The notes under the pieces were generated by a model. The model worked only from the letters and a program-made list of their open reading frames with translations, searched no databases and was not told where the DNA came from. A stretch of 48,121 nucleotides of DNA from Candidatus Zixiibacteriota bacterium (GTDB taxonomy: Bacteria; Zixibacteria; MSB-5A5; GN15; FEB-12), in contig JBGSIV010000077.1 in the NCBI GenBank assembly GCA_041742355.1, positions 1 through 48,121 of the forward strand, given 5' to 3'. This document shows, in pieces, positions 1-27,246 of the stretch; position 1 is the stretch's first letter; the number at the start of each line of letters is the position of its first letter. The position numbers and the translations under genes are program-made.

Positions 1-2754
<2,754 letters not shown>

Positions 2755-2853
2755 AAAAGCCTTACCTAAGAGCATCCATTTGTCACCTTACGTGACACAG
2801 CCAATTGGAAGATACGTTTTTTCCGTATCAACCCGGGTCGTCAAATCTATGAA

Positions 2854-2866
2854 GTTGTCAAAGAGC
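2854..2866 (-). promoter_or_regulatory. boxA antitermination site in the 16S-23S spacer
   Basis: Minus strand TGCTCTTTGACAAC, matching the rrn boxA consensus, between tRNA-Ala and 23S. Confidence 0.8.
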
Positions 2867-2924
2867 AGGTTGCCCTGGAGGGCAACTTATCTAATACAAA
2901 ACAAGAATTCGTAAGTTCCAAAAT

Positions 2925-2997
2925 TGGAGATGACCGGGATCGAACCGGCGACCTGTGGCTTGCAAAGCCACCGCTCTCCCAACTGAGCTACATCCCC
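2925..2997 (-). tRNA. tRNA-Ala(TGC)
   Basis: GGGGATGTAGCTCAGTTGGGAGAGCG-GTGGC-TTTGCAA-GCCAC-AGGTCGCCGGTTCGATCCCGGTCATCTCCA folds as a cloverleaf with anticodon TGC. CCA is not encoded. Confidence 0.97.
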
Positions 2998-3022
2998 GAA
3001 ACCAAAACCGTTTTTTTCACAC

Positions 3023-3096
3023 TGGGCCTAGATGGAGTTGAACCATCGACCTCGCGCTTATCAGGCGCGCGCTCTAACCAACTGAGCTATAGGCCC
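3023..3096 (-). tRNA. tRNA-Ile(GAT)
   Basis: GGGCCTATAGCTCAGTTGGTTAGAGCG-CGCGC-CTGATAA-GCGCG-AGGTCGATGGTTCAACTCCATCTAGGCCCA, anticodon GAT. CCA is not encoded. Confidence 0.97.
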
Positions 3097-3236
3097 GTTA
3101 AGCTCGTTTACGCGCCTGATGGCGACGTTGTTTTATCACGTAAATAGTCATCGGGAAGTCCAGGAGGGGTAGACGGCGTGCCGGTCGACCTTGGAACGGC
3201 ACCGCGCTTGCGCGCGACGCTCGCACCATTCTCCTT

Positions 3237-4789
<1,553 letters not shown>

Positions 4790-14515: not shown

Positions 14516-15769
14516 TCACGATTCGTGCCCGCCTGCCTGAGACCGGCTCTTCTTGAATGCTTCAAGTACGTCCAACACCATATCAATATCTTCCGGCGTC
14601 ATGTCCGCGGCGACCTGGAAGCGGATCAACTCCTCCCCCCTTGGTACGATCGGGAACCCGAGTCCTGTCGCTAGTATTCCGTGGTCGTGCAGAAACCGCG
14701 CCATCGCGCGCATCTGCATGGTGTCGCGCACGATCAACGGCACAACCGGGTGGGGGCTTGGGATTGTCTCGAAGCCGTGCGCAATCAACCCCTCCTCGAA
14801 TCGTCGGGTCATGGAGTGCAGGTGAGCGATCATCTCCAGTCCCTCGCTGCTGTCGACAATCTCGAGCGACTGCAGCGAAGCTGCCGCCTCTGGTGGCGTG
14901 ATCGGATTCGTGTAGATGTAAAGCGGGTTCTTCTCCCGGAGGTATGTCGTAACCGCTGTATCGGACACAATGTACCCGCCATTCACCCCGAACGCCTTGC
15001 CGAGTGTAGCGACGAGGATATCGGCCTGCCCCCCGGTCTGTTCCTCGGTGCCTCTCCCCGTCCTCCCCAGTGCACCAACGCCATGAGAATCATCGACAAT
15101 GAGCACGACCCCTCGTGGAAAGTCCTTGTCGTGGCGCCGGACGATCTGCTCGATCTCGTCCAGTGGCGCACAGTCTCCCCGCATAGAGAACACTCCGTCG
15201 GTGATCACGAGCACGGACTCCGCCTCACCGACCGAGGCGCCAATTTGTCGATCCAGCTCAACCAGATCCAGGTGCGGGTAGATTTTCTTCGCCTTCGGCC
15301 GGGACAGCTTCATCGCATTGATGATGCTGTTATGATTCAGTTCGTCGGATATGATGATCGTCTCGGGCGTGGTCAGCGAGGTGAGCACGCCGAGGATGGC
15401 GGTATACGCCGCCGAAGTGATCATGCAGGCGTCGCGCCCGTGGAATCCTGCGAGCTTATGCTCCAGTTCTACGTGCGGTTGGAACGTGCCGGCGATGAAC
15501 CGTACTGCCCCAGGTCCGACCCCCATCGACCGCGCGGTCTCCTCTTCTGACTGGATGAGACGCGGATGTGTGGAGAGGCCGAGGTAGTTATTTGAATTCA
15601 TGCGCAGGAACTCGTGACTCCCGTGACCTTCGAGAAACACGCGCGGTCCGGTGGTACCGTGCGGGCGACGGACCCCGACTATGACCTGCTCATGGGCCTT
15701 AGACAGTCCCTGAGCTTCAAGCGCATGCGCTTCGTCTTTGAGTGCAGCTGTAAATTTGTCGAGCGGCAT
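14516..15769 (-). CDS. PLP-dependent alpha-oxoamine synthase (Kbl/BioF family), second paralog
   Basis: 'MNSNNYLGLS', 'AVRFIAGT', 'ISDELNHNSI', 'TDGVFSMRGD', 'DDSHGVG', PLP lysine in 'TLGKAFG', 'IRFQV'. Confidence 0.9.
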   Translation of the reverse strand: MPLDKFTAALKDEAHALEAQGLSKAHEQVIVGVRRPHGTTGPRVFLEGHGSHEFLRMNSNNYLGLSTHPRLIQSEEETARSMGVGPGAVRFIAGTFQPHVELEHKLAGFHGRDACMITSAAYTAILGVLTSLTTPETIIISDELNHNSIINAMKLSRPKAKKIYPHLDLVELDRQIGASVGEAESVLVITDGVFSMRGDCAPLDEIEQIVRRHDKDFPRGVVLIVDDSHGVGALGRTGRGTEEQTGGQADILVATLGKAFGVNGGYIVSDTAVTTYLREKNPLYIYTNPITPPEAAASLQSLEIVDSSEGLEMIAHLHSMTRRFEEGLIAHGFETIPSPHPVVPLIVRDTMQMRAMARFLHDHGILATGLGFPIVPRGEELIRFQVAADMTPEDIDMVLDVLEAFKKSRSQAGGHES

Positions 15770-15902
15770 AATCCTGATCCGGCAGTGTTTAGGGGTTCCA
15801 TGCGGCTCGGCCGCACATCAAAATTGCGCAAACATAGTGGAAAACTGGAGGTGTGGCAAGGGGTTCCCACATTTCGAAAGTACGTAAGGCCGGACTCAAA
15901 TG

Positions 15903-15933
15903 AAAAGGCGCCGGGTGGCTTCACCCGGCGCCT
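15903..15933 (-). terminator. Intrinsic terminator after kbl
   Basis: 12-bp stem AGGCGCCGGGTG/CACCCGGCGCCT with a 4-nt loop, followed by a T-run on the minus strand. Confidence 0.75.
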
Positions 15934-15958
15934 CGTTTCGAAGGATGTGCGGCACAGG

Positions 15959-17206
15959 CTACATGCCGTACATCTCGATAATCTCATCCTTCGTCTTGCC
16001 CAGGATATTGTACTTGCAGCCGACCTTTTTGAACGCGTCGAGCGCCTTGTCAAGGTGATGTCGTTCGTGTGCGGCCGAGATCTGCGTCCGAATCCGCGCC
16101 TGCCCCTGCGGCACGACCGGGAAGAAAAACCCGATCGCGTAGATCCCCTCGGCGAACAGGTCGCGCGAGACGTCCTGCGAGAGCTTCGCGTTGAACAGCA
16201 TTACCGGCACGATCGGAGTGTCCCCCTTCTTGAGCACAAAACCGGCCTCTTCGAGCCCCTTGCGCCAGTAGGCGGTATTGGCCTCGAGCTTGTCGCGCCG
16301 CTCAGTGGTCGCCGATAGGATCTCAAGGACCTTGAGCACACCCGATACCACGACCGGAGCGATCGTGTTAGAGAAGAGATACGGACGAGCCTTCTGACGG
16401 CACATTTCTACCAGTTCCCTGCGTCCGGAGACACAGCCGCCGGAGGCACCGCCGAGCGCCTTGCCAAAAGTAGTAGTGATGATATCGATCTTACCCATCA
16501 CGCCGCACTTCTCATGCGTGCCCCGGCCGGTCTTGCCGATGAAGCCGCTGGAATGCGACTCGTCGACAAACAGCATAGCGTCGTACTTTTCACACAGCGC
16601 CACCATCTCATCGAGCTTGGCCGTGTCGCCGTCCATCGAGAAGACGCCGTCGGTGATAACCACCTTGCGGCGCTTGCCGGCGTGGAGTTGGAGCTTCTCC
16701 TCGAGGTGCTCCATGTTGGAGTGCTTGAACGTGTCGTGCTCGGCGCTGCACAGGCGGATGCCGTCGATAATCGAAGCGTGCACCAGTCGATCCGAGATCA
16801 TGACATCGTCCTTGTTCAGGATCGCTTCGAACACGCCGGCATTGGCGTCCATGCAGGACGGGAACAGAATCGTTGCCTCGGTGCCCAGAAAAGCCGTGAC
16901 CTTGTCTTCCAACTCCCTGTGGATGTCCTGCGTGCCGCAGATGAACCGCACCGACGACATGCCGTAGCCGCGGGTTTCGAGCCCCTCGTGGGCGGCCTTG
17001 ATCACATCGGGATGGCTTGACAAGCCGAGGTAGTTGTTGGCGCACATGTTGATGACCTTTTTGGTCGCGGCGCCAACCGGATATTCAACATCGATATCCG
17101 GCGACTGGGCGGAGTGGATGAAACGCTCCTGCTTAAACAGGCCGGCATCCTGCAGATCCTTGATCTGCTGCTGGTAGGTCGACCGGACAGTATTGCTGAA
17201 ACTCAT
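15959..17206 (-). CDS. kbl: Glycine C-acetyltransferase (2-amino-3-ketobutyrate CoA ligase)
   Basis: 'MCANNYLGLSSHP', 'GMSSVRFICGTQDIH', 'SCMDANAGVFE', 'TFGKALGGASGG', 'RQKARPYLFSN', 'FPVVPQGQARIRTQISAAH' are Kbl signatures. SD AAGGAG. Confidence 0.93.
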   Translation of the reverse strand: MSFSNTVRSTYQQQIKDLQDAGLFKQERFIHSAQSPDIDVEYPVGAATKKVINMCANNYLGLSSHPDVIKAAHEGLETRGYGMSSVRFICGTQDIHRELEDKVTAFLGTEATILFPSCMDANAGVFEAILNKDDVMISDRLVHASIIDGIRLCSAEHDTFKHSNMEHLEEKLQLHAGKRRKVVITDGVFSMDGDTAKLDEMVALCEKYDAMLFVDESHSSGFIGKTGRGTHEKCGVMGKIDIITTTFGKALGGASGGCVSGRRELVEMCRQKARPYLFSNTIAPVVVSGVLKVLEILSATTERRDKLEANTAYWRKGLEEAGFVLKKGDTPIVPVMLFNAKLSQDVSRDLFAEGIYAIGFFFPVVPQGQARIRTQISAAHERHHLDKALDAFKKVGCKYNILGKTKDEIIEMYGM

Positions 17207-17269
17207 TGCCTTACTCCTTGCCGCTCACGACGGAGAAACCGCCGGCGGCGAATGCCGGGCCTGCCCGGA

Positions 17270-17515
17270 CTACTTCACATACTCGCGAACCAGCGCGACA
17301 ATCTTGTTCACGGAGTCGAACGCCTCCGGGGTCGCCTTGTCATCGGGAATCGAAATCTTGTACTTGTTTTCGAGGAAACGTTTCAGGGAAACCATCGAGA
17401 ACGAATCGACGATGCCGCCGGAAATGAGCGGCGTATTGACGCCCAGATCCTCGTCCTCATCCTCGAGGTACTCGGCCTTGACGTATTCCAGCACAACTTT
17501 GGTCATGTCATCCAT
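17270..17515 (-). CDS. Acyl carrier protein
   Basis: 81 aa, acidic, 'TPLISGGIVDSFSMVSL' phosphopantetheine Ser motif, 'YKISIPD', 'FDSVNKIV'. SD AGGAG. Confidence 0.9.
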   Translation of the reverse strand: MDDMTKVVLEYVKAEYLEDEDEDLGVNTPLISGGIVDSFSMVSLKRFLENKYKISIPDDKATPEAFDSVNKIVALVREYVK

Positions 17516-17551
17516 GGTCAACTCCTGCCGTCAGGCTGTATATCGTACATG

Positions 17552-19255
17552 CTAGTCGTTTTCGAGCGACGAAACATCGCCGACTTCTTCGCCCCACTCC
17601 TTGGCATGCAGCAGGCGACGCACGATTTTCCCGCTGCGCGTCTTCGGCAGCGACGGAACGTACTCGATCTCCTGCGGCATCGCCAGCGGCGAAAGCCGTT
17701 TCCGAATGAAATTCATGATCTCAAGTTCGAGGTCGGGACCGGCCTGGAAACCGGGTTTGAGAGTCACAAACGCCTTGACCACTTCCATGTTGATCGGGTC
17801 GGGCTTCGATACCACGGCCGACTCGGCCACGGCCGGGTGCTCGAGCAGGGCCGATTCCACTTCGAACGGACTCACAAGGTGGCCGCCGGTGTTGATGATG
17901 TCATCGTCGCGTCCCGTGAACCAGAAGTACCCTTCGTGGTCGAGTTTGGACCGGTCGCCGGTGAGATACCAGCCATTCTTAAACTTCGCCCGGTACGTGG
18001 TTTCATTGTTCCAGTATGTTCTCATCATCGACGGCCAGCCCGGCTTGATCCCGATGAGGCCGATCACGTTCGGACGCTCGATCGGCTCATATGTCACGGG
18101 GTCGAGTACAGTCGCCGTGATTCCCGGGAACGGGCGTCCCATCGAGCCGGGCTTGATCGGCATGCCGGGGAAGTTAGTGATCATGATGCTGCCGGTTTCG
18201 GTCTGCCAGTATGTATCGTGGAACGGCAGGCCGATAACCCGCTGTGACCAGACCACCGCCTCGGAATTGAGCGGTTCGCCGACGCTGGCCAGATGGCGCA
18301 GGCTCGACAGGTCGAACTTCTTCGGCGCGTCATCGCCGGCCTTCATGAGCGAGCGGATTGCGGTCGGGGCCGAATACCACATCGTGACGCGGTGCTTCTC
18401 GATAAACTTGTACCAGCCCTCCGCGGAGAATCCCTGGTCGATCACGCACTGCGTGACTCCCAGCGAGAACGGCGCGATGATGCCGTAGGAAGTGCCGGTC
18501 ACCCAGCCGGGGTCGGCCGTGCACCAGTATATGTCGTCATCGCGCAGGTCCAGCGCCCACTTGGCAGTGAGGTACTGGCCGACCAGGGAGTAGTGAACGT
18601 GCTTCACTCCCTTCGGTTGGCCAGTCGTCCCGGATGTATAGTGGAGCACCGACGGCGACTCCGCCTTCGTCGGATGAATTTCAAGGTGCTCGACCGGGGT
18701 GGCTGTCTCCAGACTGAATGCTACTTCGCGTTCCTGGAGCGGCTTGCGGCCGTCGTAATCGACGATGATGATGTGCGTCAGCGACGGAAGCTGGTCGATG
18801 ATCTTGCGCACCTTCGGCACGTGTTTTCTCTGCGTGATGATTGCCTTCGTCCCGGCGTCTTTCAAACGCACGAGGAGCGATTCGTCGCCAAAGGCGGAGA
18901 ACAACGGCTGCACGATGGCGCCCAGCTTGAGAACGCCGACGAAACCGAGATAGAGTTCGGGAATTTTATCCATGAAGAGGCAAACCCGGTCGCCGTCGAC
19001 AATGCCGAGTCCGCGCAAAAACGCCCCGATCGTGTTCGAGGTCAGGCGGACATCGTTGTAGGTGTACTTCTTCTCCTTGCCAGTCGCGTCTTCCCAGAGC
19101 AGGGCCATCTTGTCGGCCTTGCCGAGTTGACACACGCGGTCCGAGCAGTACCAGCCGATATTGATCGTACCGCCGGGAGTATAGCCGAGTTCCTTCTCGG
19201 CAATTGACCAGTCGAAGCCTTTGACGCGGTCCTGATATGATCCGAAGTTAGTCAT
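17552..19255 (-). CDS. acsA: Acetate--CoA ligase-like AMP-binding enzyme (AcsA type)
   Basis: 'YTSGTTGQPKG' P-loop, 'WCTADPGWVTG', 'SVGEPLN', 'DTYWQTETG', 'GRDDD', 'PKTRSGKIVRR'. Confidence 0.9.
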   Translation of the reverse strand: MTNFGSYQDRVKGFDWSIAEKELGYTPGGTINIGWYCSDRVCQLGKADKMALLWEDATGKEKKYTYNDVRLTSNTIGAFLRGLGIVDGDRVCLFMDKIPELYLGFVGVLKLGAIVQPLFSAFGDESLLVRLKDAGTKAIITQRKHVPKVRKIIDQLPSLTHIIIVDYDGRKPLQEREVAFSLETATPVEHLEIHPTKAESPSVLHYTSGTTGQPKGVKHVHYSLVGQYLTAKWALDLRDDDIYWCTADPGWVTGTSYGIIAPFSLGVTQCVIDQGFSAEGWYKFIEKHRVTMWYSAPTAIRSLMKAGDDAPKKFDLSSLRHLASVGEPLNSEAVVWSQRVIGLPFHDTYWQTETGSIMITNFPGMPIKPGSMGRPFPGITATVLDPVTYEPIERPNVIGLIGIKPGWPSMMRTYWNNETTYRAKFKNGWYLTGDRSKLDHEGYFWFTGRDDDIINTGGHLVSPFEVESALLEHPAVAESAVVSKPDPINMEVVKAFVTLKPGFQAGPDLELEIMNFIRKRLSPLAMPQEIEYVPSLPKTRSGKIVRRLLHAKEWGEEVGDVSSLEND

Positions 19256-19271
19256 ATCGATCGAGAGCCTC

Positions 19272-19646
19272 CTATTTTTCCAGAATTACCATTGCTGCCG
19301 CTGTTGTGGTCGGTACGGATAAAGCGAGGCGACACCGGATGATGCCCCGGCGGTCGGTCTGCCGACGGGCCTCCCCCGTCACCGCCAGGTCGGGAGCACC
19401 AGAGTCACCGCTGATGACCTCAATATCGGAGAAGCGAATACCGCCTCTCCAGCCTGTTCCGAGGGCCTTCAGATAGGCCTCCTTGGCCGCGAATCGGGCG
19501 GCGAAGTGCCGTTCCGGATGGCGCTGGCCCGCACAGTGCGCTATTTCCGCCGCGGTGAACAGCTGCTCCATGAGGCCGGCCTGCTCTTCGAGCTGCCGCG
19601 CCACCCGCGGTACTTCGATTGAATCTATGCCTATTCCGACAATCAC
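19272..19646 (-). CDS. acpS: Holo-ACP synthase (4'-phosphopantetheinyl transferase)
   Basis: 'IVGIGIDSIEVPR', 'FT..E', 'AARFAAKEAYLKALGTG', 'DIEV....GAP'. Its GTG start overlaps the tdh stop (GTGA). Confidence 0.92.
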   Translation of the reverse strand: MIVGIGIDSIEVPRVARQLEEQAGLMEQLFTAAEIAHCAGQRHPERHFAARFAAKEAYLKALGTGWRGGIRFSDIEVISGDSGAPDLAVTGEARRQTDRRGIIRCRLALSVPTTTAAAMVILEK

Positions 19647-20620
19647 CGCGACACCGGTTTCGCGTCTCCTTTGCCGAACCGGGCCGCGAGCACATCGAGC
19701 ATCTCGCGCGACATCTTCGGCAAATCAAACTTCGGCCGCCAGCCCCACTCCGCCCGCGCCGCCGAATCGTCCATGTAGTTCGGCCACGAGTCGGCGATCG
19801 CCTGCCGCACCGGGTCGATCTGATAGTCAATCGTGAATCCCGGAACGTGCCGGCAGATCTCCGCCGCGAGTTCCGACGGAGTGAAGTGCATGGCAGTAAC
19901 GTTGTACGCGTTGCGGTGCACCAGAGAGGTCGGATCCGCCTCCATCAGCTCGATCATCGCGTTGATGGCGTCGGGCATATACATCATGTCAAGACTTGTG
20001 TCCGGACGAAGGTAGCAGGTGTATTTCTGGTGTTTGATTGCTTCAATGAAAATCTCGACCGCGTAGTCGGTCGTGCCGCCGCCCGGCTCGGTTTCATAGG
20101 AGATGATTCCGGGGAAGCGCACGCCGCGCGTATCGACTCCGAACCGCTTGAAGTAGTACTGGCAGAGAAGTTCGCCGGTCAGCTTCGTGACGCCGTAAAT
20201 GGTTTCGGGGCGCTGAATAGTTACCTGCGGCGTGTTGTCCAGCGGAGTGGACCGGCCGAAGACGCCGATCGAGCTGGGGACGAACACGCTGCAGTGGTAC
20301 TGCCGCGCCGCCTCAAGGATGTGGTAAAGTCCGTTGACATTGACCTGCCACGCCTGGTTGGGACGGCTCTCCCCCACAGCCGACAGCAGTGCGGCCAGGT
20401 GGAAAATCGTATCGGCCTGGTGGATCGACATCACCCGCGTGATGTGGTGCGGATCGAGGACATCGAGAAATTCGAACGGTCCCGACTCAAGGAACGACCG
20501 ATCGGCGGGCATGCGGATATCGGTGGCAATAACGTTCTCGGCGCCGTAGCGTTTCCGCAGCGCCAACGTGACCTCGGAGCCGATCTGACCAATGGCGCCG
20601 GTGATGAGGATCTTCTTCAT
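19643..20620 (-). CDS. tdh: L-threonine 3-dehydrogenase, SDR/epimerase type
   Basis: 'ILITGAIGQIGSE', 'HLAALLSAVGE', 'PSSIGVFG', 'YGVTK', 'PGGGTTDYAVEIF', 'MMYMPDA', 'RQAIADSWP' match the UDP-galactose-epimerase-like ThrDH family. Adjacent to kbl genes. Confidence 0.88.
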   Translation of the reverse strand: MKKILITGAIGQIGSEVTLALRKRYGAENVIATDIRMPADRSFLESGPFEFLDVLDPHHITRVMSIHQADTIFHLAALLSAVGESRPNQAWQVNVNGLYHILEAARQYHCSVFVPSSIGVFGRSTPLDNTPQVTIQRPETIYGVTKLTGELLCQYYFKRFGVDTRGVRFPGIISYETEPGGGTTDYAVEIFIEAIKHQKYTCYLRPDTSLDMMYMPDAINAMIELMEADPTSLVHRNAYNVTAMHFTPSELAAEICRHVPGFTIDYQIDPVRQAIADSWPNYMDDSAARAEWGWRPKFDLPKMSREMLDVLAARFGKGDAKPVSR

Positions 20621-20786: not shown

Positions 20787-21626
20787 TCAGGAGAGGTTAG
20801 GCGGGAAAACGCTACGGCGGCGAAGCAGCCCTAGCAGCGGCAGACCGATCACGTAGCACGCGATCAGCTCCCCTACCCCGACCATCTGCACACAGAACCA
20901 GTAGTTGACTCCGATAATTGGCGCCAGGTATGCCGACACCCCCAGGGCGTTGAGCACAACCGGCGGAAGCGGCGCCAGAAGAACGCCGGGCCCGATCTCC
21001 GAGACAAGGCTCCAGGAAAACACTCCTGCCCCGGCCACAGCTGCCACCATAAGCAGCGCCCCGCAAACAATGAAGTAAGTGTCCGGGGTGACCCGAAGGA
21101 GCAGCACCGCTACCATGGCCAGTATGAGCGATACAATGAATCGTGTGCCGATCTGCTCGCGCAGGTCGTCGGCTGCCTTCCCCTTCGGCGTTCGGTACAC
21201 CAGAAGCGGCACAACTGCGGCTACGCCCAACGCGGCCCCGAGGACTGTCAGCAGGGTGAGCACCAACCCGCTGAGCAGGTACACCGCCCCCAGCCACATC
21301 AGGACGACCGGGAGAACCGCCGGCAAGAGGGCCGCCCTCCGACTGAGCATACCGGCACGATGTGTCAGCACCGCAGCCACCAGGGTGATCAGCGGCCCAA
21401 CCACAATATCGATCCAGCCAACGTTGCCGAAGACATTGGCCAGCAGGCAACCCACATAGAGGCCGGGAATAGCCGCCGGGAGAAAGAACGGAAGGACGGT
21501 CAAGGCCTCGGCTACCCGAATCTGATAGACGCCGAACGAAATTGGGGCAAACGCCAGACTGAGGACGGCGTAGAGCGCGGCAACAAGACCAGCGTGGGCA
21601 ATATCACGAATAGAGAACCGGTTCAT
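20787..21626 (-). CDS. queT: QueT family transporter with internal extra TM segments
   Basis: N-half 'AALYAVLSL.FAPISFG..QIRVAEALTVLPFF.P.AIPGL.VGCLLAN' and C-end 'LAPLPPVVLNALGV..YL....VGVGELIACYVIGLPL' are QueT motifs. Start MNRFS at 21626. Confidence 0.8.
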   Translation of the reverse strand: MNRFSIRDIAHAGLVAALYAVLSLAFAPISFGVYQIRVAEALTVLPFFLPAAIPGLYVGCLLANVFGNVGWIDIVVGPLITLVAAVLTHRAGMLSRRAALLPAVLPVVLMWLGAVYLLSGLVLTLLTVLGAALGVAAVVPLLVYRTPKGKAADDLREQIGTRFIVSLILAMVAVLLLRVTPDTYFIVCGALLMVAAVAGAGVFSWSLVSEIGPGVLLAPLPPVVLNALGVSAYLAPIIGVNYWFCVQMVGVGELIACYVIGLPLLGLLRRRSVFPPNLS

Positions 21627-21646
21627 TCGGAGGAATGAACCGGTTC
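21615..21646. repeat. Perfect 14-bp inverted repeat covering the queT start codon
   Basis: GAACCGGTTCATTC-ggag-GAATGAACCGGTTC. Confidence 0.9.
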
Positions 21647-21684
21647 GGGGAGGTGACGTCAATGCTTTTCGTACACTGGGAACG

Positions 21685-22341
21685 TCAGGACACCGAGGCC
21701 GGGGCCGTGCCGGCCACTGGCTGACGGTGGTACGGGACGTCGGTGACGCCGATCCAGGAGAGGGTGCTGAGGTTGTACTCAACCACCCGTCCCTGTTCGT
21801 CGGCGACCTTCAAGACATTCTCATGATCGCGAAGGCCCACCGAAATGGGGGTGTACAGATCGCCATTGGTGTTGTTTTCCTTGGACTTGATGCGGATCTT
21901 GCGGCGACTCTGGAGTGCCCGGAAGAACTCCGCCAGGATGTCCGGATCGGTCGGTTGGTTCAAGACATTCTCGCTCGTCTCGAACTCAATGGCCCGCTCG
22001 TCGTCGCGGCGCATGCCCGAGATGAACCCGCCGAGCTTCTGCTCGATTACGGCGAACCGGCGGCGGAAATACGGGTGCTTCGCCAGATTGTTCGAACGGA
22101 GACAGTAGTTGACCAGCGCCACATCCGAACCGTCCAGCGAGTTCTGCGGCAGTTCCGCGTCCGGTGTAAGCTTGTAGCCGTCCCGGTACTGAATGACGAA
22201 CCCCAGCCTGAGAAGGGAGCTGATGTCGCGATACACGGTGCGTTCGGAAACGCCGCATTCGCGGGCCATATCTGCAATATGCACTGCCGTCTGGTTCTTC
22301 AGCAGACCCAGCACATACATCAGACGCTCTGATTTGGTCAC
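21685..22341 (-). CDS. HTH (DeoR/HTH_11-like) plus WYL-like transcriptional regulator
   Basis: 'MTKSERL..VLGLL', 'MARECGVSERTVYRDISSL..LGF.I....GYKL' is a YafY/PafBC-like N-terminus. C-terminal 'ALQSRRKIRIK..Y.P..V' is WYL-like. No WCX domain is evident. Confidence 0.75.
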   Translation of the reverse strand: MTKSERLMYVLGLLKNQTAVHIADMARECGVSERTVYRDISSLLRLGFVIQYRDGYKLTPDAELPQNSLDGSDVALVNYCLRSNNLAKHPYFRRRFAVIEQKLGGFISGMRRDDERAIEFETSENVLNQPTDPDILAEFFRALQSRRKIRIKSKENNTNGDLYTPISVGLRDHENVLKVADEQGRVVEYNLSTLSWIGVTDVPYHRQPVAGTAPASVS

Positions 22342-22746
22342 GATGTTAACCCCTTTTTAGTAGTTATCACAGGCGCCCGGTGCCCGGTGGTCAGTTCCTG
22401 ACCCGTCCCATTACTCAACCGATGATACAATCTGACAGGCGTCTGTTTCCAGCTTGTCGGTCGTTCTAGGTCGGAAAAAGTGAATTGAAGCTACCTGCCT
22501 CTCTGTTAATCGGTCCCTGACGCTTACCGTCGGCCTATCCGCCTAATAGTCACTCCCTGTTGAGACCGGCGGCCATTCGCGTGGCCGCCGGCCAGACAGT
22601 CTGACTCGGATGTCTCAATGCTGTCCAAAGCCACCGCCGGAGCGGGGGCCGCAATCCTAGCGCCCTCTGACAGGAAAGGTCGGGGAAAGTAGCTGATTGG
22701 TCAATAGGAGTAAATTGCTAAGGTAATGCGTATACCAAATACGTAA

Positions 22747-25700
22747 TTATAAGGATTGCAGGTAGGAATTCAGGTTGATGTCGCGATTCTTCAACCCAAG
22801 CTTGTCACGAATGGCCTCGCGGTGTTTATGGACTGTAAGCAGTGATGTGCCAATTGATTCTGCTATTTCCTTGGAGGTATAGCCGTTCTTGATAAGTCTG
22901 CAGATCTGGACCTGACGGGGGGTTAAATTCCGGAACTGCTCACGCAACCCCGAGGCAAATTCTGACGAAATCTGGTCCAGACCGTCCTCCAACACCTCGA
23001 ACAGCGCCGCCTGCGGCTTCCCGCTCATTGCCCTCAGCCGCTGGAGCGTGGGTAGGATGTCCCGCTCGATGTTGTCCATTACCAAGCGCTTAACCCCTTC
23101 CTTCTCCCCTTCAATCTGATTCAGCACCTCTCTCAGCGCGATGTTCTTCTTCTGTAGCGCTTCGTGCTCCTGTTCGAGTTGTTCGTGAGTACGATGGAGG
23201 TCTTCCTCCATTCGTCGCCGCTCGGTAATGTCGATTCCCGAAGCCAGGATGCCGCCGATCTGTCCATCCGGATTTCGGACGCCCGTCAGGTACCAGGCTA
23301 TCAGCCGGCGGTCGCCCGCAACCGTCAAAGCATAGCTTTCATAGTAGTCCAGACCGTCCATTTGCCCAGAAACAAACTTCCGGAACAAACCCCGGACCAG
23401 ATCCCGATCCTCCTTCGGAACAAATTCGTCCACCCATACCCTGCCAATCAGGTCCGCCTCGGGCAATCCGATCAGATCGGCCCCCTTACGGTTGATCATT
23501 AGGATTCGGGTGTCCGGATCGAAGGCCATCATCAGGGTCGCCGCTACATCAAGGTACATCTGAGCTCGCTCCATTTCACGGCGAAGCGCCTCTCGTGTGT
23601 CCTTGAGTTCCTGGATATTGCGGGTGATGGTCAAAATGTGCGGTCTGCCGTCGAGGGTCATCAGGCTGGCTGACATCAGTCCGACCAGCACTGATCCATC
23701 TTTACGGCGGAACTCCATTTCCAGGTTCTCCATGCGCCCCCGATCCCGGAGACACCGAATCATGTGGTCGCGGGCGGTCTGATCGACCCAGATGCCCAAT
23801 TCAAGGCTGCTCCGGCCGATGAGTTCTTCGCGGACGTAACCCGTGATCGAAGTGAATCCTTCATTCACGTCGATGTAGACACCGTCCTCGACACGGGTAA
23901 TAGCGACGGCGTCCGGACTCGTGCGGAAAGCCCGGCGGAATCGCTCCTCGCTCTCGGCAAGAGCCGCGTGGGTTCGGTTGCGCTCGGTGATGTCGAGCGC
24001 AGCCACAGTGATGCCCGCCGACGGGTCCTTCGGATCGACCGGCGCCATCTGCATGAGGACATCGATGATCTCGTCATCCTTGCATCGCAGCCGGGTCTCG
24101 ATCGAGGAGAACCCGATCTCCTCGCTCTGAGCCTCGAGGAAGGCTTCGATACCCCTCCAGTCTTCGTCTGATGCGTACAGGCTGCTGGCTTCGCGCCCCA
24201 CAATCTCTGTACGGTCATACCCGACCATCGAACACAGGTGATCGTTTACCCGTTGGATGATGCGGTCGCGGATCACAGCAATGGCTACCGGCGCCGCCCG
24301 GAAAATGCTCCGCATCGCTGCTTCGCTGGCGCGGAGTGCCTCTTCGGCCTCATGGCGCTGTGTGACGTCGCGGCCGACCGAATGAATCTCGATCAGGCTA
24401 CCGGCATCATCGAAGAGTCCTCGGTCCGTCCACTGCACCCACGCCATACGGCTGCCGGCCATCACCTCCAACTGCTCGTTACTGATAACGGGCGTAGCTG
24501 GACTGAGCCGGGAGGTTTTTTCGCGCAGCATGCTTGAGAGGTCGCGCGTCGGGACTTCCAGGATATTTACCCGCAGTGCCTGTTCCTCGGTTGTTCCAAA
24601 GAAACGGCAGTAATGCTCATTTACGTACGTTCGAGTACCGTCCGGCCGCCATCGCATGATGAGTTCAGTCTGGTCTTCGACGAGACTTCGATATCGTGCT
24701 TCGCTCTCCTTCAGCAGCCGGGCGGCGCGGCTTCGCTCGGTGACATCGAGAAACATTGCCGCCACACGGTCCTGTGAGGTTTGAAAGGCCACTACCTCGT
24801 AGGCTCCGCGAATCTGATCGTCTTCATATATGATTTCGTCGGTTCGCCAGGTCGAACCATCACGGGCCACCTGGCGGTAACGGGCCGGGACCTCCGTGGA
24901 TGCCAGAGGAGGGAATGCTTCCTCAATGGCTTTGCCGATAAATCGGGAGTTGTCCACAGCGAGCATCTGGTCAGCCGCCGGATTTCCCCCTTCGAAAATA
25001 AGCCGACCATCAGGCTCCAATCGATACAGGTGCACTCCCATCGGCGACGACTGGACGATATTGCGGAACTTCTCTTCACTGCGACGAAGGTCATCGGCGG
25101 CCTGGCGTTGAGCTGTCACCTCGGTCATCACGCCGGTGAGGCCGATAATACCCTCCTCCCCTTTGACCGGCCCCAGCGTGATCGTGTACCAGGAACAGCC
25201 AGACGTCTCTCGCCTCATAACCTCCCAGGTCACAGCCCTGCCGGAATGCAGTACCTGGTCGGTATACTCGGCCACCGAGGTCACCCGACCGCAGTCCAGA
25301 AAGTCACTGATGGACCGGCCGATCATCCGTTCCGGGATCTCTCCGGGCAGCGGACGGTTGATGAATGTTATGGCGCCGCCGAGGTCAAGGGTGAACACGA
25401 TATTCGAGAGATTCGTAACCAGCGAACGCCAGAACGCCTCCGAATTCTGCAACGCCTGACGGGCTTCCGACCGCTCCACCGCCGCACCCAGAGTACCAGC
25501 CACAGCATGCACCGCATCCAATTCTGCCTGCGACCAACCGCGACCGGCATCCCGGCTGTGGAACGCGACGAAACCCCAGAACACTCGTTGGACGAATATT
25601 GGTACGGCCGCCAGCGAAAGCACACCTTCCGCAACCATGCGGACTCGCAGCGCTGCCGGGACGTCCTCAACCCCGCCGTGAACCGGCACTCCTTCCGCGA

Positions 25701-27246
25701 GAAGATCGAACACCGGAGCAAAGCCGGAATCATCACAAGGGATGTCAGCAGCCCTCCGATCCTCGTCGTTGCCCTCCTCCGAGTCGCCGGTTGTCCACAC
25801 GCACCGGCAGCGATAGACCGATTCTGTCCCTGACTCGCGACCGTAGATACAGATCCGATCGACCTGGGTCGCGCGCCCGAGACGGGCCAGACAGCTGTAA
25901 ATTGCCTCTGACAGCTCGGGGATCTGAAGCAGCGTCTCGGCAACATCACCCAATGCCTGCAAAATGGCGTCTCGTCGCCACAATTCCAACTCGGCGTGTT
26001 TGCGGGCCGTTATATCCATCAGCACAAGCTGCACCGCCGGTTCCCCGCGAAACAGAATCCGCGAAGCAGCGACGTCGGCCCAGAGCAGCGAACCGTCTTT
26101 GCGGCAGAGCACAGCTTCGTACCGTGAGGGTTCATCTTCGCCGCGGAGACGTGCGATGTAGCGTGGAAGCAAATACCGCGATTCCTGTGGCAGCAAAATG
26201 TCGAAGGAGTCGGCGGCGAGCAGTTCGTCGACGGCGAACCCGGTGACGCTCTCGACCACGGGATTGGCAAATACGATTCGTCCCGCTTCCCCTTGAAGGA
26301 TTACCAGCCCCTGCAGTGACCGATCAACGAGCGTCCGATACTGCTCCTCGCTGCCGCGGAGAGCCGCTTCGGAAACCACCCTGGCCGTGACATCGGTAAT
26401 GAATCCCTCCAGCGCGGTCAGTCCACCGCCCAAATGAACCAGACGCCCCTGCTCCCAGACCCAGCGTTCTGCTCCTGTACGATTGATGATGCGATACTGA
26501 ATCTGAAAGGACCGCTGATTCCTCACTCCCGATTGGACACTCCTCCAAACCAACTCACGATCCTCGGGGTGAATGAGCTGGCCGTAGGGCACTTTCCCGG
26601 ACACCAGGTCTTCCGGCTCGTACCCTGTCAAGTCGCGGCAGCCATCGCTCACGAACTCCATGGGCCAGTCTTCGGTGTTCGCACAGCGATAGGCCATTCC
26701 CGGAAGATTGCTCAACAGCGTACTCAACTGCCGGCGATTTTCCCTGAGCTCCTTTTCGGCAGACTTGCGCAGCGAGATATCACGTATGCTGGTACGGTAT
26801 CCCGAGAGCTGGCCGTCGGTTCCGATGATCGGCTGCCATGATGCTGCAACCCAAAGGGAACTGCCATCCTTGCGGCGAATACGGAACTCGACGTCGTTTC
26901 CCGATGTCCCGTTGAGAGCACCTTCAAAACATCGTGCCGCCCGCTCGCGATCATTGTCCTCAATTAGCGCCAAGGGGAATCCCGACAGGTCAAAGCACTC
27001 CGCCTGAGTATAGCCGGTGACTCGCTCGACGGCCGGGTTGACCCACAGGAGCCGTCCGTCGGCTCCAATCCAGTTCTCCCAATCGTAGCCGTAGTTGGCG
27101 ATCGCCCGGAGGGGATTGTCTTCTCCGACTGCCTCGATATTGAAGCCGTCTTGAAACCGCGGCTTCAGACGCTCCTCGTCGGAGGAATGGGAAATCGACT
27201 CGGGTGGTGCGGAATTGCGCGAGTGCTGGTGGTCGTCTTGGTGCAT
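22747..27246 (-). CDS. Multi-PAS/GAF sensor with a C-terminal LuxR-type HTH (one-component regulator)
   Basis: Nine PAS/PAC units ending in D[IV][ST]-R-like motifs, one GAF, a coiled coil, then 'LTPRQVQICRLIKNGYTSKEIAESIGTSLLTVHKHREAIRDKLGL'. Confidence 0.92.
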   Translation of the reverse strand: MHQDDHQHSRNSAPPESISHSSDEERLKPRFQDGFNIEAVGEDNPLRAIANYGYDWENWIGADGRLLWVNPAVERVTGYTQAECFDLSGFPLALIEDNDRERAARCFEGALNGTSGNDVEFRIRRKDGSSLWVAASWQPIIGTDGQLSGYRTSIRDISLRKSAEKELRENRRQLSTLLSNLPGMAYRCANTEDWPMEFVSDGCRDLTGYEPEDLVSGKVPYGQLIHPEDRELVWRSVQSGVRNQRSFQIQYRIINRTGAERWVWEQGRLVHLGGGLTALEGFITDVTARVVSEAALRGSEEQYRTLVDRSLQGLVILQGEAGRIVFANPVVESVTGFAVDELLAADSFDILLPQESRYLLPRYIARLRGEDEPSRYEAVLCRKDGSLLWADVAASRILFRGEPAVQLVLMDITARKHAELELWRRDAILQALGDVAETLLQIPELSEAIYSCLARLGRATQVDRICIYGRESGTESVYRCRCVWTTGDSEEGNDEDRRAADIPCDDSGFAPVFDLLAEGVPVHGGVEDVPAALRVRMVAEGVLSLAAVPIFVQRVFWGFVAFHSRDAGRGWSQAELDAVHAVAGTLGAAVERSEARQALQNSEAFWRSLVTNLSNIVFTLDLGGAITFINRPLPGEIPERMIGRSISDFLDCGRVTSVAEYTDQVLHSGRAVTWEVMRRETSGCSWYTITLGPVKGEEGIIGLTGVMTEVTAQRQAADDLRRSEEKFRNIVQSSPMGVHLYRLEPDGRLIFEGGNPAADQMLAVDNSRFIGKAIEEAFPPLASTEVPARYRQVARDGSTWRTDEIIYEDDQIRGAYEVVAFQTSQDRVAAMFLDVTERSRAARLLKESEARYRSLVEDQTELIMRWRPDGTRTYVNEHYCRFFGTTEEQALRVNILEVPTRDLSSMLREKTSRLSPATPVISNEQLEVMAGSRMAWVQWTDRGLFDDAGSLIEIHSVGRDVTQRHEAEEALRASEAAMRSIFRAAPVAIAVIRDRIIQRVNDHLCSMVGYDRTEIVGREASSLYASDEDWRGIEAFLEAQSEEIGFSSIETRLRCKDDEIIDVLMQMAPVDPKDPSAGITVAALDITERNRTHAALAESEERFRRAFRTSPDAVAITRVEDGVYIDVNEGFTSITGYVREELIGRSSLELGIWVDQTARDHMIRCLRDRGRMENLEMEFRRKDGSVLVGLMSASLMTLDGRPHILTITRNIQELKDTREALRREMERAQMYLDVAATLMMAFDPDTRILMINRKGADLIGLPEADLIGRVWVDEFVPKEDRDLVRGLFRKFVSGQMDGLDYYESYALTVAGDRRLIAWYLTGVRNPDGQIGGILASGIDITERRRMEEDLHRTHEQLEQEHEALQKKNIALREVLNQIEGEKEGVKRLVMDNIERDILPTLQRLRAMSGKPQAALFEVLEDGLDQISSEFASGLREQFRNLTPRQVQICRLIKNGYTSKEIAESIGTSLLTVHKHREAIRDKLGLKNRDINLNSYLQSL

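Follow-up and report, generated by a model that had tools for sequence, protein, structure and literature searches.

The synthesis of lipids, of biotin and of natural products is known to involve oxoamine synthases that depend on a carrier protein. Threonine cleavage linked to coenzyme A (CoA) runs downhill, and because of this its reverse needs an ATP push, which a private carrier could deliver. The described pair of threonine dehydrogenase (Tdh) and Kbl, represented by Kbl of E. coli (1FC4) and Cupriavidus necator (7BXP) and by the TDH of short-chain dehydrogenase/reductase (SDR) type, needs only CoA. In Caulobacter and other Rhodobacteria, AasR, AcpR and a serine palmitoyltransferase (SPT) act together; the ligase bears a CoA-ligase annotation, and its own carrier is all that it acylates (PMC9386255). 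SulA of Alistipes is an oxoamine synthase that prefers substrates on an acyl carrier protein (ACP) (PMC9304779). Here we describe a locus on a contig of 48,121 nt from a Candidatus Zixiibacteriota bacterium (JBGSIV010000077.1 in assembly GCA_041742355.1; the whole contig is called the window), in which the genes of a phosphopantetheinyl transferase (acpS), an acetate-adenylating enzyme (acsA), an ACP (acp) and a Kbl (kbl1) stand between tdh and a second kbl gene, kbl2. This four-gene cassette is a real, widely conserved module. We think it probable that acetyl groups are carried on its private carrier protein instead of CoA; that the cassette is a mobile module running the Kbl reaction on this carrier for threonine synthesis is the reading we favour, tentatively and at a shade under an even chance. 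We infer each enzymatic step, the carrier use and the direction from the gene anatomy, conservation, insertion site and residue patterns, all of which can be read directly.

The cassette is built from parts of the Tdh/Kbl pair and of the Bacillus-type AcsA (PMC11255334), and it has in common with the former the SDR-Tdh family, the family TIGR01822 and the active-site residues (PMC9814548). It differs in that Kbl1 belongs to a distinct clade whose constant companions are a ligase, a carrier protein and a phosphopantetheinyl transferase. A first-pass annotation of the window had described a tight minus-strand operon of five open reading frames in which tdh and acpS overlap, followed by gaps of 16, 36 and 63 nt and closed by a terminator. 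This anatomy stands (Table 1), with a correction to its extent: kbl2, which lies 189 nt beyond kbl1, had been overlooked. The terminator has a 13-bp stem followed by a T-run, and its folding energy of -30.7 kcal/mol (z -5.2) was equalled in none of 200 shuffles. The enzyme families were also correctly called. Tdh matches solved SDR threonine dehydrogenases over its full length (E 1e-126 to 1e-75), including the GGGTTDY loop that we take to be the mark of the SDR-TDH family; AcpS passes TIGR00516; AcsA, with its DPGWVTG motif at residues 248-254, scores 748 bits on the acetate--CoA ligase model NF003313 (cut-off 729); and the carrier has an invariant DSFSM motif, with D37-S38 in 43 of 43 sequences. 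Kbl1 does belong to the Kbl family, with 566 bits on TIGR01822 (cut-off 493) and 313 on the SPT model, but it is not the canonical enzyme it had been called: it represents a separate clade of 415 residues and is not the ordinary Kbl of the lineage. The cassette genes are extra copies, since the same genome (93.8% complete) encodes a long-type Acs on contig C198, a housekeeping fatty acid synthase (FAS) ACP on C136, a second AcpS-like protein, 30% identical to that of the cassette, on C216 and an SPT-like oxoamine synthase on C303 (C303:5470-6606). Elsewhere in this genome, an AMP-ligase gene lies divergent from a small carrier gene (C66:9055-11285).

A scan based on AcsA returned at least 606 relatives, of which the best 80 loci were kept; counts of loci below refer to these. 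The linkage on which the first-pass proposal depended is conserved across genomes: acp follows acsA in 76 loci, with three of the four misses stopping at a contig edge, a member of the Kbl1 clade (at 70% identity or more) is present in 70, and acpS in 57. The order acsA-acp-kbl is fixed across phyla at 65-87% identity. Tdh of either type was found in 26 loci (16 SDR, 10 Zn-type), and the conserved mobile core is acpS-acsA-acp-kbl1. Among the matches listed, the nearest loci are labelled Zixiibacteriota; metagenome-assembled genomes (MAGs) with the unit are also labelled Bacteroidota, Aminicenantes, Cloacimonadota, Planctomycetota, Fibrobacterota, Elusimicrobiota and others. A plasmid search with the ACP gave no match. 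Two loci look damaged: in L118 (3198-14640) acsA is in two pieces and kbl lies about 8 kb from the ACP gene, and in L021 (9027-10275) kbl1 is frameshifted.

We then compared 201 genomes of the same phylum, scoring the ACP as present at 61% identity or more. The ACP was found in 77 genomes and the Kbl1 clade in 79, with both in 77. The 124 other genomes include six with a diverged ACP (41-48%) and two with Kbl1 only; acsA-acp was present in the three of the six that were fetched, and hom, the homoserine dehydrogenase gene, was found in none of those eight. Tdh of either type occurs in 70 of the 77 cassette genomes compared with 82 of the 124 others, and within 10 kb of the ACP gene in 53 of the 70. 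These genomes overlap slightly with those of the 80 loci, and kin are non-independent in these counts.

Carrier dependence, as the first-pass annotation had proposed, gains independent support from this co-occurrence, from gene fusion and from one alignment column of Kbl1. It is also in line with a FastTree analysis of 135 Kbl rows, in which two label changes suffice for the 82 rows adjacent to an ACP, compared with a shuffled mean of 42; near-copies inflate this contrast. Of 22 longer ACP relatives, nine were examined. Three in-frame AcsA-ACP fusions were found, P0012 (six members on five contigs), P0009 and P0011, which are 86-91% identical to one another. Single reading frames joining AcpS to ACP (P0007, P0010 and P0016) occur on one contig each and are weakly supported, and P0014, P0006 and P0013 were dropped as probable frameshift or chimera artefacts. 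An AlphaFold model of P0012 was uninformative on docking; its ACP part is mostly below pLDDT 50, and a fold search returned Acs structures only.

In C. necator Kbl, the cofactor (pyridoxal phosphate, PLP) and substrate residues are N52, V81, H138, S187, H215, K246, L274, F275 and R370 (PMC9814548), and their equivalents, those of the glycine/threonine cavity included, are invariant in 76 core and seven deep ACP-linked rows of our alignment. Among the 46 canonical and sister Kbls that are ACP-free, 44 have Lys or Arg at column 157 (8/8 in the nearest sister clade), as have 6/6 kbl2 products; this makes 50 of 52 ACP-free rows, compared with 6 of 83 ACP-linked rows. This is the sole column among 415 screened that is basic in ACP-free and non-basic in ACP-linked rows. 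Kbl1 of the window has His157, and the neighbouring residue is Asp in all 76 core rows. Column 157 lies 14 residues after the PLP-stacking His, and an equal-length match to 5-aminolevulinate synthase (ALAS) chains places it at Lys299 of human ALAS2, which sits where the adenine of succinyl-CoA is expected to lie (PMC7272653). The solved Kbls 1FC4, 3TQX, 7V58 and 7BXP all have Arg here. If the role of this site in binding the CoA nucleotide can be carried over from ALAS2, Kbl1 would lack the basic residue expected there. In an ACP-free sister clade of Kbl1 (L101, L106-L111 and L073:3831-5090), 63-66% identical and mostly beside a Zn-type Tdh, Arg157 is kept and Thr replaces Pro275; its genes follow the cassette in L110, L111 and L073.

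These observations bear on the possibility that AcsA and Kbl1 work with CoA like their ordinary counterparts and that ACP and AcpS serve something else. Both large enzymes pass the curated cut-offs of CoA enzymes, and AcsA has no diagnostic change relative to 19 short-type relatives, whatever their gene context. However, the ACP accompanies Kbl1 in 77 of 79 genomes, the gene order is fixed across phyla, AcsA and ACP can be fused, separate Acs, FAS ACP and Kbl genes exist in the same genome, and the basic residue at column 157 is lost. We therefore regard ordinary CoA use as very doubtful.

The sequence of AcsA points to its acyl substrate. V252 and V325 are conserved in 96 of 96 cassette sequences, W350 in 94 of 96 and the A10 lysine K543 in 96 of 96; by comparison with Salmonella Acs we take V252, V325 and W350 to be acyl-pocket positions, and position 252 presumably corresponds to the Asp of amino-acid-activating enzymes. 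As judged from these residues, the pocket is of acetate size. The best solved relative is Bacillus subtilis AcsA (PDB 9G79; NF003313; E 3e-166), which resembles it in the short architecture, in the acyl pocket and in the A10 lysine. The B. subtilis enzyme uses CoA. Sharing only about 45-50% identity with its nearest short-type representatives, the cassette clade adds the conserved basic residues R70, R150, K151, R176 and R435; R150 and K151 occur in 97% and 93% of the 96 cassette sequences compared with 21% of the 19 short-type relatives. Two candidate carrier signatures of AcsA were rejected as common to short-type relatives: the change of the A8 Arg to Leu, found in 10 of the 19, and the loss of the R191/R194 CoA loop, which is also absent from the relatives including B. 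subtilis AcsA. The carrier profile is nearest to type II peptidyl and D-alanyl carriers, with PltL, PigG and DltC as the nearest solved relatives (to E 1e-14), and not to fatty-acid ACPs; the single sequence falls just below the Pfam cut-off (20.2 versus 20.8). Carriers of the PltL, PigG, DltC and SulA type bear aminoacyl, pyrrolyl or fatty acyl groups, whereas an acetyl group is proposed for the carrier of the cassette.

Taken together, the chemistry is most likely that of acetate, glycine and threonine. AcpS would arm Ser38 of the carrier, and AcsA would make acetyl-AMP and then load the acetyl group onto the carrier, not onto CoA. Kbl1 would condense acetyl-ACP with glycine to 2-amino-3-ketobutyrate (AKB), which the resident Tdh would reduce to L-threonine, so that acetate, glycine, ATP and NADH would yield threonine, AMP, PPi and NAD+. 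A small private pool, almost fully acetylated, would push a condensation that, by our estimate, the acetyl-CoA/CoA ratio does not favour.

The first-pass annotation had drawn a parallel with bacterial sphingolipid loci. To encode an adenylating ligase along with a specialised carrier and with an alpha-oxoamine synthase is indeed the logic of AasR-AcpR-SPT (PMC9386255), and the cassette has this co-occurrence. By analogy, the cassette would work like that system; it is not a member of it, having neither a long-chain ligase nor an SPT and using, as we propose, other substrates and enzyme subfamilies. AasR-AcpR-SPT joins a long fatty acid to serine with decarboxylation and yields a lipid, whereas the cassette would act on acetate and glycine with a Kbl-type enzyme and has its own phosphopantetheinyl transferase and a Tdh partner in amino-acid metabolism. 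The part of the parallel resting on the reductase did not hold, since the SDR is a true Tdh and lineages elsewhere have Zn-type Tdh in its place. A pathway for sphingolipid- or amino-lipid-like compounds with long acyl chains would fit this shared gene logic and the best NCBIfam match of the ACP, an ornithine-lipid-locus ACP, which is far below its cut-off (58.8 versus 130 bits). Against it speak the acetate-size pocket of AcsA, the far better score of Kbl1 on the Kbl than on the SPT model, the separate SPT-like gene on C303, the identity of the SDR and the lack of any recurring acyltransferase gene in the best 80 loci, and we consider a lipid pathway unlikely in the extreme.

Another product is conceivable: Kbl1 might accept acetyl-ACP or propionyl-ACP and, as other oxoamine synthases do, decarboxylate, so that aminoacetone or a similar amino-ketone or amino-alcohol would be formed for some other use. 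The likeness of the carrier to the type II biosynthetic carriers PltL, PigG and DltC and the clade-specific changes of Kbl1 near the PLP site (M119, V142 and T374) would agree with this, and it would explain co-expression with a second Kbl. However, M119 and a hydrophobic residue 142 are common to the ACP-free sister clade directly beside Zn-Tdh; M119, V142 and the C-terminal extension were for this reason also rejected as carrier signatures. In addition, all carboxylate-binding residues of Kbl are retained in Kbl1, and the best 80 loci show no tailoring or export gene that recurs from phylum to phylum. We judge a decarboxylating Kbl1 to be quite unlikely.

The genes around the cassette suggest how it came to its place. 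Of 41 cassette-free relatives with kbl2, one of the same genus included, 39 have it within 200 nt behind tdh; tdh-kbl2 is therefore most likely the ancestral operon, into which acpS-acsA-acp-kbl1 was inserted between the two genes. The tdh gene does adjoin the cassette, as the first-pass annotation had it, but as the resident gene of the operon that holds the insert and not as part of the mobile core. Upstream of tdh, a QueT-like membrane protein is encoded at 20787-21782 of the window; the order of QueT-like gene and tdh is kept in the cassette-free relatives L086, L088, L090, L091 and L094, a mark of the ancestral locus. GC content and GC3 do not set the insert apart from its surroundings. 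The kbl2 product is 34% identical to Kbl1 and below all NCBIfam cut-offs, those of Kbl, BioF and SPT included; its clade (the window, L085-L094 and L105) probably represents a Kbl subfamily that lacks annotation.

Of the 77 cassette genomes, 37 have a second Kbl (13 of kbl2 type, 24 of canonical or sister type), and in the other 40 none was found with the two queries used. On these counts, the cassette appears to be added to a resident Kbl and often to outlast it. Compared with the enzyme of the Tdh-Kbl pair, Kbl1 lacks the basic residue at column 157 and is added to or replaces the resident Kbl. In five good-quality genomes without a second Kbl, a family search found one other oxoamine synthase each, and the three that were fetched are 67-75% identical to the SPT-like protein of our genome; a threonine-aldolase-like match was present in all five. 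The terminator parts the cassette from kbl2 here, and the same probably holds for 4/4 similar loci, the spacers of which have candidates with a hairpin and a T-rich tail; we count this for synthesis.

Whether the pathway makes or breaks down threonine is a finer question, and synthesis is slightly favoured. The hom gene is depleted in cassette genomes (6/77 versus 33/124 others; 0/20 versus 20/51 in the family of our bacterium), and neither hom nor thrC was found in our genome. In the reverse direction, Tdh would oxidise threonine, Kbl1 would cleave AKB onto the carrier, and AcsA would run backwards, converting acetyl-ACP, AMP and PPi to acetate and ATP. This would be a CoA-independent substrate-level phosphorylation on a private carrier that shields the acetyl potential from the CoA pool drained by Pta and AckA and recaptures AMP and PPi. 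Such breakdown would agree with the position of the cassette in or beside tdh/kbl operons in several lineages, with Kbl1 being the sole Kbl found in 40 of 77 genomes, with the coexistence of the cassette with hom-thrC clusters in 10 of 50 cassette genomes from across phyla and with a host that looks like an amino-acid auxotroph. ATP formation by an Acs is established in Syntrophus aciditrophicus (bioRxiv 10.64898/2026.07.06.736832), whose Acs1 is a precedent for the reverse reaction; it is a long-type CoA enzyme in a cell without AckA/Pta, and the cassette AcsA shows no equivalent of its bias loop (G196/T197, R199/K202). Unlike in S. aciditrophicus, acetate kinase is common in cassette genomes and not depleted (65/77 versus 94/124), and the depletion of hom also argues against breakdown, the overall reaction of which would be near equilibrium by our estimate. 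A further point against it is that shutting off acetate activation in the usual manner (PMC11255334) would agree with Pat-like neighbours and with an A10 lysine that is intact. We regard breakdown as the less likely direction, but as a serious contender.

Pat-like acetyltransferase genes are present in 12 of the 80 loci, several by lineage synteny, and an AceTr/SatP acetate transporter gene in eight, directly behind kbl1 in five. A gene of the Pat/YfiQ-like acyl-CoA-synthetase-GNAT type lies downstream of kbl1 on the same strand in L017:4661-6763, L104:9403-11256, L006:10999-13683 and L012:10972-13656, and our genome has a 66% identical copy on C214.

Several observations weigh against carrier-dependent threonine synthesis. 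IlvD was not found in our genome either, which gives the host the look of an auxotroph that feeds on peptides and would have little need of threonine synthesis. The absence of hom is also seen in 91 of the 124 cassette-free genomes, and related genomes do not count independently. Co-absence of thrC, which the first-pass annotation had put forward as a check, was not borne out: thrC-like genes occur in 21/77 cassette genomes versus 51/124 others, and in a cross-phylum set of cassette genomes thrC is above the cut-off in 33 of 50, with hom beside thrC in 10. The cassette and hom/thrC are not mutually exclusive, as replacement of the aspartate-family threonine pathway would have it; thrC alone is a poor marker, many matches being stand-alone threonine-synthase-like genes or without hom. 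On the side of the carrier, AcsA has no firm ACP signature compared with its 19 short-type relatives, the AcsA-ACP fusions belong to one lineage and retain the ACP's own Met, and the contrast at column 157 may be one evolutionary event. In five loci (L041, L047, L051, L058 and L068), acsA-acp has no Kbl within 7 kb; its partner may be a Kbl elsewhere in the genome or another enzyme. The 40 genomes without a second Kbl suggest overlap with the catabolic enzyme. Finally, 24 of the 80 loci have a second Kbl gene on the same strand no more than 300 nt away, and no terminator candidate was found in 8 of 12 tested spacers between it and the cassette; a co-expressed second Kbl would short-circuit the private pool unless AKB is channelled, which is awkward for both directions.

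Some relatives hint at a different source of threonine. In L126 (3603-6829) and L131 (3479-7507), a PLP enzyme resembling methionine-gamma-lyase or O-acetylhomoserine sulfhydrylase forms an operon with threonine synthase and a homoserine kinase (ThrH or TIGR02535), and L127, L129, L130, L132, L133 and L135 have similar layouts. In some of the genomes that bear these operons, G002 and G016 among them, homoserine dehydrogenase was looked for and not found, which hints at threonine made from methionine or homocysteine via homoserine.

Table 1. Features of the cassette locus (positions in the window)
Feature	Position	Strand	Description
tdh	19643..20620	-	SDR-type L-threonine 3-dehydrogenase; native to the ancestral tdh-kbl2 operon
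acpS	19272..19646	-	Phosphopantetheinyl transferase of the cassette; GTG start overlaps tdh TGA
acsA paralog	17552..19255	-	Short (Bacillus-type) acetate-adenylating enzyme; proposed acetyl-ACP synthetase
acp	17270..17515	-	Dedicated carrier protein of 81 aa; Ser38 codon 17404-17402
kbl1	15959..17206	-	ACP-linked Kbl clade, 415 aa; His157 codon 16738-16736
Intrinsic terminator	15905..15934	-	Between cassette and kbl2 (read 15934-15905)
Weak sigma70-like site ahead of kbl2	15831..15859	-	9/12 matches; consensus match only
kbl2	14516..15769	-	Divergent Kbl, original Tdh partner of the lineage; presumably CoA-dependent

Elsewhere in the window, positions 1-4789 of the minus strand hold an rRNA operon (16S, two tRNAs and part of 23S). 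Rfam matches in the window are rRNA and tRNA only, no riboswitch was matched in nine related loci, and no Thr- or Gly-rich leader peptide recurs ahead of 31 loci. The stretch 21685-27246 encodes a helix-turn-helix (HTH) regulator (Pfam HTH_11) and a 1499-residue open reading frame in which, by eye only, many repeats look PAS-like and the C-terminus looks like a LuxR-type HTH.

We found no description of the cassette in the open-access literature, although subscription journals or the tables of MAG papers may mention it; nor did we find there a dedicated acetyl carrier in central amino-acid metabolism. By the curated cut-offs, AcsA and Kbl1 count as ordinary Acs and Kbl, and the cassette would for this reason be misread when the metabolism of these anaerobes is reconstructed. 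If it serves synthesis, it would be a new aspartate-independent, ATP-driven route to threonine from acetate and glycine. If it serves breakdown, it would represent a new way of recovering ATP from AMP and PPi during threonine fermentation, and a carrier-protein step of energy conservation in amino-acid-fermenting anaerobes of many phyla.

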